A stretch of 64,000 bases of DNA from Escherichia coli (GCF_003790525.1 NZ_CP033635.1), one strand, 5' to 3'. Numbered from the stretch's first letter, positions 15,217-16,849 are shown. Numbers and translations are program-made. Notes: generated by a model from the letters alone, not told the origin.

Positions 15217-16849
15217 CGTGGTCAGGGAGGATTCTTCACCGGGAACACTGAATAAATTTCTGATGGAGATGGAAGATGCTCCTTATTATCCGAAGGCGTT
15301 GTCAGAGCTGGAGGCTGTGGTGCAGTCCATACTGCACAGAGCAGAGTCCGCGGCATCTGAGGCGGAGGAAGCCCGGAAACGAGCAGCATCTGCCCGGGGA
15401 CCACGAGGAGAGAAAGGGGATACCGGCGCTCGTGGTGAAAGAGGCATTACCGGGCCACAGGGGCCAAAAGGTGAAACAGGAGCACGTGGCCAGGCAGGAC
15501 CACAGGGACCAAAAGGTGAAACAGGTGAACGCGGTCCGGCAGGTCCACAGGGACTAAAGGGGGATACAGGTGAACGCGGCCCGGCAGGTCCTCAGGGACC
15601 AAAGGGTGAAACAGGTGCACGCGGCCCGGCAGGTCCACAGGGACTAAAGGGGGATACAGGTGAACGCGGCCCGGCAGGTCCACAGGGAGCAAAGGGCGAA
15701 ACAGGTGCACGTGGTCCGGAAGGCTCTCAGGGTCTGAAGGGAGAAAAGGGTGAGCGAGGAGAAAAAGGCCCTAAGGGGGATAAAGGAGATCCGGGAGGTC
15801 CACAGGGACCAAAAGGTGAAACAGGTGAACGTGGTCCGGCAGGTCCACAGGGACCAAAGGGCGATACAGGTGAACGTGGCCCGGAAGGTCCACAGGGAGC
15901 AAAGGGTGAAACAGGTGAACGCGGCCCGGCAGGACCACAGGGACCAAAAGGTGAAACAGGTGAACGCGGTCCGGCAGGTCCACAGGGACCAAAAGGTGAA
16001 ACAGGTGAACGCGGGCCGACAGGTCCACAGGGACCAAAGGGCGATACAGGTGAACGTGGCCCGGAAGGTCCACAGGGAGCAAAGGGTGAAACAGGTGAAC
16101 GCGGCCCGGCAGGACCACAGGGACCAAAAGGTGAAACAGGTGAACGCGGTCCGGCAGGTCCACAGGGACCAAAAGGTGAAACAGGTGAACGTGGTCCGGA
16201 AGGTCCTCAGGGACCAAGAGGAGAGTCAGCCCGTGGACAACTGCTGAATGGTGATCTGAACCGACTGGGACGAGTGACCGATCAGGGTGATTATTATCAG
16301 CCATCAGACAGTGGGGCTACACGAGAAAATAATTATCCGATTCAGAGAGCGGGTTATCTTCAGGTAAGAGTTGGTGCATGGGGATATTGCCAGCATGAAT
16401 ATACAACCTGGAACCCACCACGAAAGTTCGTAAGAACTGTTACTGGTAATTTTACCGGTAATGGCCCCTGGTCTGAATGGAAAGAGCTGGGAGCCCTGGG
16501 GGAGCGTGGTCCACAGGGACCAAAGGGCGATACAGGTGAACGCGGTCCGGCAGGTCCACAGGGGCCAAGAGGAGAAGCGGGGCGGCCAGCGAGCGTCGGA
16601 AGTGTTTATTCCGTGGGGTCTTATGTTCTGGGGATCATAGAACGAAATCATGAGATAACAAATACCCGTGAAATACCCGGGTATCGTATCAGACAGGCCG
16701 TTATTGTGTCGTCGTCATCGGATAAACTTACAGATATCCGCTTTTTATTTGGCAATCCTATGCTTGGTACATGGATGTTATGCACAACTAACATGACGGT
16801 GAATAATATCAGTGGGACGATTTGGGGCCTGTTTCAGAGAATACGGTGA
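15217..16849 (+). pseudogene. stf: side tail fibre gene, 3' portion (collagen-like); in frame with 10960-11186 once the IS and one repeat copy are removed
   Basis: Joining 11186 to 15217 restores ...[20 protein letters not shown]..., which resembles lambda Stf (...YEDSQPGTLNDFL...); long Gly-X-Y collagen-like repeats. Confidence 0.8.
15398..16228 (+). repeat. collagen-like Gly-X-Y triplet repeat region in stf (short second block about 16498-16585)
   Basis: Repeated [18 protein letters not shown] units with 45-bp nucleotide periodicity; causes spurious antisense ORFs. Confidence 0.85.

Follow-up and report, generated by a model that had tools for sequence, protein, structure and literature searches.

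A collagen-like Gly-X-Y array with a 45-nt period in the IS-split side tail fibre gene of an Escherichia coli prophage

Collagen-like shafts, their length polymorphism and a single G-G break were described for the fibres of E. coli prophages in 2012, and the array analysed here is of this known kind. In that work, Ghosh et al. (2012, PLoS One 7:e37872; PMC3368898) presented the EHEC prophage collagen-like proteins EPclA-D (EPclPs), whose collagen (Col) domain differs in length between copies, a 322-aa Col domain being found in Stx2-86_gp21, and whose conserved G-X-P-G-G-P-X-G break was already noted. In the same report, recombinant EPclA and EPclB are trimeric, with a true collagen triple helix that is thermostable, and take the shape of dumbbells with a stalk, as would suit side tail fibres (PMC3368898). 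The paper also describes lambda Stf as part of the virion, where it makes adsorption faster or widens the host range (PMC3368898). Beyond the EPclPs, two further groups of proteins share single features with the locus: the R1/R2 pyocin fibres of Pseudomonas aeruginosa, in which knobs are trimeric beta-sheet modules interspersed in the fibre (Buth et al. 2018, PMC6116203), and the antireceptors of Streptococcus thermophilus phages, in which, as summarised at second hand, collagen-like repeats separate domains (Duplessis and Moineau 2001, via PMC5601072). Repeats of the collagen-like type have, moreover, been proposed, in earlier work as cited in PMC7242381, to be recombination hotspots in phages.

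The stretch of DNA analysed here, hereafter the window, comprises 64,000 nt of an E. coli genome (NZ_CP033635.1) and carries on its + strand an 831-nt array that translates, inside ORF 15218-16849, into 277 residues of collagen-like sequence (Col1). It is in our view very probable that this array encodes the predicted collagen triple-helical shaft of a trimeric lambda-Stf-type fibre, that the gene is now inactivated by an IS, and that the units of the array change by recombination or slippage. The features on which this reading draws are the following.

10960-11186, + strand: 5' fragment of stf (PfN, residues 1-75), placed by identity to the start of the intact TUM1886 gene
11187-15208, - strand: 4022-bp insertion, an ISCro1-like element of the IS66 family carrying IS1414, delimited by duplication, inverted repeats and identity
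11230-12544, - strand: nested IS1414 (IS256-like), inside the ISCro1-like element
15217-15397, + strand: remainder of PfN and a short Ala/Glu-rich linker (residues 76-135 of 619), from the reconstructed frame
15398-15802, + strand: Col1 block A, 45 Gly-X-Y triplets, closing in a divergent segment
15785-15808, + strand: register break G-D-P-G-G-P-Q-G, with one extra Gly; the neighbouring Gly codons lie at 15794-15799
15806-16228, + strand: Col1 block B, 47 Gly-X-Y triplets, made of nine 45-nt units and GPRGES; contains the 172-nt exact duplicate
16229-16489, + strand: middle non-collagen domain of 87 residues, a predicted pyocin-type knob from profile and fold matches
16490-16588, + strand: Col2, 11 Gly-X-Y triplets (33 residues), its DNA 80% identical to Col1 units
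16589-16849, + strand: C-terminal domain of 86 residues, ending in GLFQRIR and a stop codon, kept in all close homologues
16864-17439, + strand: gene for a DUF4376 protein (Pfam, PHROG), the constant partner directly 3' of the fibre gene

The main points of a sequence-only reading that had drawn attention to the array proved right, and two corrections are needed: the array has a register break, which is conserved, and the gene is disrupted by an IS. The divergent segment within the array, Col2 and the IS insertion had gone unnoticed in that reading. The placement of the array at 15398-16228 was exact, the first Gly codon starting at 15398 and the final GPRGES codon ending at 16228. The description of the Gly-X-Y run as uninterrupted does not hold, as 45 triplets are followed by one extra Gly and then by 47 triplets (277 = 3 x 92 + 1). 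Mid-array, just before this break, lies a divergent Lys/Glu-rich segment of ~31 residues (15713-15802) that departs from the 15-residue unit. The break itself, G-D-P-G-G-P-Q-G, has the form G-X-P-G-G-P-X-G reported for EPclPs, and the same G-G break is present in every long allele that we translated (Ch1, TUM1886, GF60, TUM9803 and AR_0085).

The 45-nt period claimed in that reading was recovered by the tandem-repeat search that it had called for: TRF returned 17.4 copies with 78% matches (score 716), along with a higher-order period of 135 (score 938), and its 45-nt consensus, CCACAGGGACCAAAAGGTGAAACAGGTGAACGCGGCCCGGCAGGT, is a cyclic permutation of the unit named there. The self-identity of the array, counted in bases, was 0.80 at lag 45 versus 0.44-0.50 at lags 9, 18, 27 and 36; the 45-nt period therefore exceeds the Gly-codon periodicity that any Gly-X-Y sequence would show. 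At the protein level, 15 phased units account for 225 of the 277 residues, four of them exact and the others with 1-4 differences, in keeping with the near-identical 15-residue units that had been proposed. The longest exact internal repeat spans 172 nt at an offset of 180 (15840-16011 = 16020-16191). This repeat has the appearance of a recent duplication of four units, and it is the stretch of the window array whose unit number is most at risk.

The composition of Col1 is that of a prophage collagen. On the reconstructed protein, the Pfam family Collagen (PF01391) matched with an E-value of 4.2e-52, scoring 174 bits where the cut-off is 27.2, and the commonest triplets of Col1 were GPQ, GER, GPK, GET and GPA. 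Its X position is occupied by Pro (45.7%), Asp/Glu (39.1%) and Ala (7.6%), and its Y position by Lys/Arg (44.5%), Thr (19.6%), Gln (17.4%), Ala (10.9%) and Pro (2.2%), which agrees with the profile of the EPclPs (X: Pro 48%, Asp/Glu 36%; Y: Lys/Arg 31%, Thr 20%, Gln 15%, Pro 7%; PMC3368898 Table 4), in which Ala is also among the preferred Y residues and Pro is scarce there. We infer from this composition that Col1 would fold into a triple helix; the protein would trimerise, with Col1 as the shaft of the fibre. At a rise per residue of 2.88 A (PMC3368898), its 277 residues would extend over ~80 nm, each 15-residue unit contributing ~4.3 nm.

The assignment to a tail fibre gene, also made in the sequence-only reading, was upheld by matches to both Pfam phage_tail_N and Collagen, and by a position downstream of gpJ and upstream of the gene for the DUF4376 protein, which PHROGs lists as a tail fibre protein. 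In the reconstructed protein, the phage_tail_N domain (PF08400, PfN) extends from residue 3 to residue 133 (E 4.6e-40), and the DUF4376 protein matches PF14301 (E 2e-20) and the tail fibre family phrog_1141 (E 1.4e-62). The genes form a lambda-like tail module of gpJ (5982-9698), two small genes, stf (start 10960) and DUF4376, in which the fibre gene holds the place of an stf locus, downstream of gpJ and with a dedicated downstream partner gene. Further downstream lie a YadA-like trimeric autotransporter (18164-19597) and then a sigma-70 region-4-like protein. The order gpJ, small genes, stf, DUF4376, YadA-like is shared with the annotated prophages of TUM1886, Ch1 and GF60 and with P-EibA, and the DUF4376 gene occupies the same position in all four. 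Lambda Stf likewise follows gpJ at the same locus position and has PfN in common with the window protein; it is not known to have a collagen domain.

The gene is a side tail fibre gene of the lambda Stf type, reading PfN, Col1, pyocin-type knob, short Col2 and C-terminal domain, and its product is predicted, by analogy, to be a virion component. PfN would be the proximal end, presumably attached to the virion, and the knob and C-terminal domain would be the distal, cell-binding parts. The C-terminal domain, presumably the distal end for trimerisation or receptor binding, gave no sequence match in Pfam, PHROG or PDB and was assigned to no family by NCBIfam.

The identity of the middle domain came from profile and fold comparisons only. 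It was assigned to no family by Pfam, by NCBIfam or by a single-sequence search of the PDB, and querying a protein word index with this domain by itself (90 aa) gave no usable result. An exhaustive HMMER search found it in 276 protein clusters, often in 2-5 copies per protein, and a profile built from 20 homologous domains matched the R1/R2 pyocin fibres 6CL6, 6CT8 and 6CL5 (E 6.9e-8), falling on chain residues 140-209 of 6CL6. An AlphaFold2 model of the domain (pLDDT 92.5) was submitted to Foldseek, which returned 6CL5, 6CL6 and 6CT8 as the top three with a probability of 1.00 and TM scores of 0.59-0.66, at an E-value of only ~1e-2. The domain also matched phrog_6578, a tail fibre protein family. 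These similarities in sequence and modelled fold to Knob1/Knob2 point to a pyocin-type knob domain, like those of the R1/R2 pyocin fibres of P. aeruginosa (PDB 6CL5, 6CL6, 6CT8). The pyocin fibres, however, are built from a helix-plus-turn rod and a shaft, contain no collagen and carry two tandem knobs followed by a lectin-like tip (PMC6116203), whereas the window protein has a single knob embedded between two collagen segments.

Collagen-like sequence and long open frames on the opposite strand invite two other interpretations, namely that the array belongs to a bacterial surface collagen-like adhesin of the Scl/Lcl type, or that the antisense ORFs are real genes. The adhesin reading can draw on weak NCBIfam matches to SclB, SclA and Lcl (E 2.5e-13 to 5.9e-10), but these reach 38-50 bits against cut-offs of 325-500 and cover the Gly-X-Y part only, and the protein opens with the N-terminal domain of phage tail fibres and lies in a tail gene cluster. 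For the antisense genes speak open frames of 87 and 177 aa, yet their translations are low-complexity repeats, owed to a unit that lacks stops in five of the six frames. The spurious frames over the array are these.

15447-15710 and 15771-16304, - strand: spurious antisense ORFs of 87 and 177 aa
15276-15557 and 15750-16247, + strand: spurious alternative-frame ORFs, from the stop-poor repeat unit

The consensus 45-nt unit has stops in + frame 3 only. Over the array as it stands, each of the remaining four non-coding frames has only 2-3 stops, and every one of these falls in a variant unit or within the divergent segment. Because the unit is stop-free in five of six frames, both the antisense and the alternative-frame ORFs arise from it, and they run out at the edges of the array or at the divergent segment, in line with the earlier proposal that the antisense ORFs are repeat artefacts. 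The sub-cut-off scores and the stop-free unit effectively refute the adhesin and the coding antisense readings, which we regard as exceedingly improbable, and the antisense and alternative-frame ORFs over the array are best left unannotated. We return, then, to the shaft of a lambda-Stf-type fibre.

The gene that would encode this fibre is interrupted. Over 408 nt, window positions 10779-11186 are 100% identical to E. coli TUM1886 (L001 5601-6008), where the homologous gene is intact; this alignment breaks off at 11186 and restarts at 15209 with an 8-nt overlap; the ORF on the near side, 10960-11190, begins MAAVKISGVLRDG. The intervening 4022-bp insertion is bounded by an 8-bp direct duplication, GGAGATAT, at 11179-11186 and 15209-15216, and its termini are inverted repeats of the IS66 type (GTAAGCGGCTC... 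and GTAACCGGCTC...). With IS1414 removed, the ISCro1-like element measures 2699 bp, carries tnpA, tnpB and tnpC on the - strand and is 98.8% identical over 2699 bp to an element annotated ISCro1 in strain GF60. The nested IS1414 has an 8-bp duplication of its own, GAGAGCTC; a second copy in the window, at 20467-21781, matches it with 99.9% identity, and a homologous copy in TUM1886 is annotated 'IS1414 family transposase'.

The insertion ends 190 nt upstream of the array and splits PfN at codon 75/76, and a single open frame of 619 aa is restored when 10960-11186 is joined to 15217-16849. In this genome stf is therefore a pseudogene, interrupted after codon 75, and since it is dead here, the array is a relic and there is no working fibre. 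An ISCro1-like element with IS1414 inserted after codon 75 of PfN leaves none of the shaft's functions able to operate in this genome. ORF 15218-16849 should accordingly not be taken for an intact gene: it is the 3' portion of stf, a pseudogene split by the IS, and the 5' portion (10960-11186) is found 4 kb upstream. By chance, the IS junction brings GGAG (15209-15212) to within 5 nt of the GTG at 15218, on its upstream side, and an N-terminally truncated product starting there, without the first 75 residues of the attachment domain, is conceivable.

Among the named types, the reconstructed protein is nearest to EPclC, the type represented by the ORF-401-like protein from the ECOR-9 prophage P-EibA. 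It has the N-terminal PfN (PF08400) that characterises EPclPs, although this domain is IS-split in the window, and it shares with EPclC two collagen domains, the triplet vocabulary, the preference for Pro at X and Lys/Arg/Thr/Gln at Y, a collagen length that differs from copy to copy, one conserved break in the first Col and the lack of a PCoil. Its PfN is 76.5% identical to that of P-EibA ORF-401, and the neighbourhood is shared as well; within it, orf-191A/DUF4376 is 57% identical, and the Eib-type YadA-like gene shows 40% identity in its C-terminal 200 residues. The two proteins differ between their collagen domains, where the window protein has the knob and P-EibA ORF-401 a Pf2 repeat. BLASTP of the window knob and C-terminal domains against P-EibA ORF-401 gave no match, PfN alone aligning. 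Col1 is 277 aa in the window vs 106-118 aa in EPclC examples and 322 aa in Stx2-86_gp21 (PMC3368898), and EPclA and EPclB, the source of the biochemical work, have a coiled-coil region and a different C-terminus from the window protein. The window protein is thus best viewed as an EPclP with a different module set rather than a strict EPclC member. The S. thermophilus antireceptors resemble it in that Gly-X-Y repeats part distinct domains; they are presumably unrelated proteins of Gram-positive siphophages, with short repeats as opposed to a 277-residue shaft.

The full window architecture was found in Ch1, where WP_285978888.1 (616 aa) has a Col1 of 247 aa including the break, the knob, a Col2 of 60 aa and the same C-terminus; this allele is intact and differs from the window in the unit number of both arrays. 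Identical architectures are already in RefSeq as 'prophage tail fiber N-terminal domain-containing protein', and the phage collection held none with the full window architecture and no record at 80% coverage.

That such arrays vary in length between prophages had been proposed from the sequence, and the comparison of homologues bears it out: Col1 spans 57-132 aa in the protein database, 157-247 aa in complete genomes and 277 aa in the window. The database set comprised the 33 closest proteins, with near-identical PfN, knob and C-terminal domains; their Col1 measures 57, 72, 87, 102, 117 or 132 aa and their Col2 30-63 aa. When 5,426 complete E. coli genomes were queried with the flanks only, the window fibre type was found in 23 of them, with the following Col1 lengths among the knob-bearing alleles.

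157 aa: TUM9803 (complete genome)
217 aa: GF60 (complete genome)
232 aa: 15 records, several of them apparently re-sequenced versions of one 5,067,659-bp chromosome
247 aa: Ch1 and 24A16CRGN010 (complete genomes)

Break-free alleles (Col1 of 57-132 aa) step by exactly 15 aa, the break-containing alleles range over 157-277 aa, and all length changes seen are in frame. Near-identical 45-nt units would allow unequal recombination or replication slippage to gain or lose whole units, and whole-unit changes would preserve both the reading frame and the Gly register. The 277 aa of the window are the longest Col1 among the knob-bearing alleles seen. The idea that the window array holds the record length was rejected, as the knob-less allele of AR_0085 has 355 aa of collagen and 322 aa are listed in PMC3368898.

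A length of this kind raises the question of assembly, as the 180-bp duplication or other units could have been wrongly expanded or collapsed, making the array length partly an artefact. In favour of an artefact, a 172-nt exact repeat lies within the array, database alleles with flanks 99.5-100% identical have a Col1 of only 72 aa, and none of the 5,426 complete E. coli genomes has a record with a Col1 of exactly 277 aa. Complete genomes nevertheless carry comparable arrays, of 157-247 aa with the knob and of 235 and 355 aa without it; the frame is open through all 831 nt, with the unit variants in sensible order; and with one of the 180-bp copies taken away the array would have 217 aa, as the GF60 allele does, which fits a real and recent duplication. 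The pattern suggests, moreover, that it is the short draft-assembly alleles that are the collapsed ones. We therefore consider an artefactual length of the window array quite unlikely and keep to an array of genuine units.

All of the short alleles (<=132 aa) come from the protein database, and the contigs that we inspected were draft assemblies, whereas no Col1 below 157 aa was found among the 5,426 complete E. coli genomes. In the commonest short allele, P0009, the flanks are 99.5-100% identical to those of the window, and the array retains the first three and the last two units. Short-read collapse is a likely contributor to the short database lengths, and if the draft alleles are collapsed, the true natural range of Col1 may be narrower, about 157-355 aa. 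Repeat number is unreliable in short-read assemblies, which calls for caution with the database protein lengths of this fibre family; the main value of the present analysis lies in annotation.

The further proposal that such arrays recombine readily found support within and beyond the window, in the 172-nt exact internal duplicate and in the knob-less alleles of TUM1886 and AR_0085, which are Col1-Col2 fusions. These two complete genomes carry 235 aa (TUM1886) and 355 aa (AR_0085) of collagen, and in TUM1886 the fusion junction lies within a 69-nt stretch that aligns to both Col1 and Col2. Knob-less and knob-bearing alleles coexist with near-identical flanks. Since the knob was lost by Col1-Col2 fusion in two complete genomes, the recombination claim stands, and a crossover between Col1 and Col2 would delete the intervening knob; recombination between the two collagen segments can, as these alleles suggest, remove the whole domain. 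The knob-loss alleles, together with the probable array collapse in draft assemblies, are of modest wider interest.

Fibre length presumably plays a role in adsorption, and the spread of lengths could be adaptive, with the unit number setting the reach of knob and tip through O-antigen or capsule and the flanking collagen blocks serving as recombination sites for the knob. In favour of such tuning, length changes are in frame and, among break-free alleles, in whole 15-aa units, knob-less and knob-bearing alleles occur side by side with near-identical flanks, and the knob is a mobile module (276 protein clusters, often several copies); collagen-like repeats between domains, as reported at second hand for the S. 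thermophilus phage antireceptors (PMC5601072), fit the same picture. Against it, length is tied to no phenotype here; the inactivation of the gene, both in this genome and in GF60, speaks against selection at present; and neutral unequal crossing-over predicts the same length pattern, to which assembly collapse may add spread. We hold adaptive tuning to be rather unlikely, and recombination or slippage of the units remains our preferred account of how the predicted shaft changes. Two bolder readings, which we put forward as doubtful, are that the collagen blocks act as a built-in recombination cassette, tuning length in ~4.3-nm steps and allowing the knob to be gained, lost or swapped, and, separately, that public short-read assemblies systematically collapse the arrays. 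On the latter, all 33 close database alleles have a Col1 of at most 132 aa and every comparable complete-genome allele has at least 157 aa. Were collapse systematic, most E. coli genome data would at present hide how long the arrays truly are, together with any relation to host surface structure.

The origin of the register break was considered by aligning 15650-15860 with an EPclB-like gene, and two readings were about equally compatible with the result. In one, a regular GDKGDP-GPQGPK motif gained a Gly codon by a 3-nt insertion (80% over 55 nt); in the other, the break descends from a Col1 terminus, GEPGGP|DATT (67% over 108 nt).

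In all 33 close database relatives of the window's side tail fibre protein (P0001-P0033), the first collagen-like segment, Col1, spans at most 132 aa, with a mode of 72 aa, and the contigs inspected for the commonest of these short alleles were draft assemblies. In every comparable allele from complete genomes, however, Col1 is at least 157 aa long, although the flanks are 99.5-100% identical. These lengths suggest that short-read assemblies systematically collapse the 45-bp array; the protein lengths that databases give for this fibre family may therefore be erroneous. Among 5,426 complete genomes of E. 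coli, none has the exact stf allele of the window or its IS configuration.

A knob-less allele, in which Col1 is fused to the second collagen segment, is carried by E. coli AR_0085:

L010 (NZ_CP029741.1) 2501-4234, knob-less fibre allele with a collagen span of 355 residues (55 + 63 triplets)

This span exceeds the 322 aa termed 'by far the longest' in a 2012 paper (PMC3368898), and the allele shares the G-G break of the window's Col1. Its 577-aa frame stays open as far as the usual C-terminus, but the record's own annotation treats it as a pseudogene without a C-terminus.

Repeats also occur in two neighbouring genes, namely the tail tip gene J and a gene resembling the eib genes:

8516-8593, tandem repeat inside gpJ (5982-9698), 33 bp x 2.4
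8676-9175, tandem repeat inside gpJ, 174 bp x 2.9, 96% identity, 58-residue units
18164-19597, YadA-like trimeric autotransporter, Eib-like, 40% identical to EibA across the C-terminal ~200 residues
18743-19175, repeats within the eib-like gene, 99 bp x 4.4, 98% identity, 33-residue units

J encodes 1238 aa in the window versus 1180 aa in TUM1886, a gap of exactly one 58-residue unit, and homologues of the eib-like product in other strains range from 414 to 515 aa. Given these repeat-linked differences, J, stf and the eib-like gene, three adjacent surface or fibre genes, are all length-variable via tandem repeats. The antisense ORF lying over the eib-like repeats (18656..19204, 182 aa) is probably an artefact like the antisense ORFs of the stf array.

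In four genomes, an ISCro1-like element lies inside or adjoining the same tail-fibre module, each time at a different position:

11187-15208, minus strand, window element, within the PfN segment of stf, after codon 75
L003 77-2775, GF60 element, orientation opposite to the window's, 21 bp downstream of the window's insertion point, duplication GATTCTTC
L010 1-2400, AR_0085 element, directly upstream of the tail-fibre gene
L011 3568-4140, TUM9803 element, tnpA start ~50 nt downstream of the DUF4376 gene

The module may be a local insertion hot region, or the pattern may simply reflect a high ISCro1 load in these strains. The TUM9803 DUF4376 gene is annotated as 414 nt, versus 576 nt elsewhere.

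At the right IS junction (window 15209-15220), part of the target duplication, GGAG, was brought to 5 nt upstream of GTG 15218, giving the 543-codon 3' stf remnant a plausible, if accidental, putative ribosome-binding site. The window holds two IS1414 copies, and each has a target duplication that starts with GAGAG. The second copy lies at the distal end of the prophage:

20467-21781, second IS1414 copy, duplication GAGAGAAT

TUM1886 carries an IS1414 at the corresponding place. The window prophage adjoins the yciE/yciF and trpA/trpB region (21800-25800 and beyond), and that of TUM1886 an ompW remnant; for the window's flank from 21800-25800 on, the best match among the 5,426 complete genomes is at most 97.6% identical. 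With neither this flank nor the stf allele and IS configuration matched exactly, the strain that the window comes from is absent from those genomes.

Upstream of stf lie two further genes:

9958-10620, moron-like gene, phrog_425 membrane-associated protein
10642-10887, small 81-aa ORF, located between that gene and stf, N-terminal start MKIIVCTFLLFLVSGCAG

The start of the small ORF resembles a lipoprotein signal that includes a lipobox; the product of the ORF may be a prophage-encoded surface or exclusion lipoprotein.
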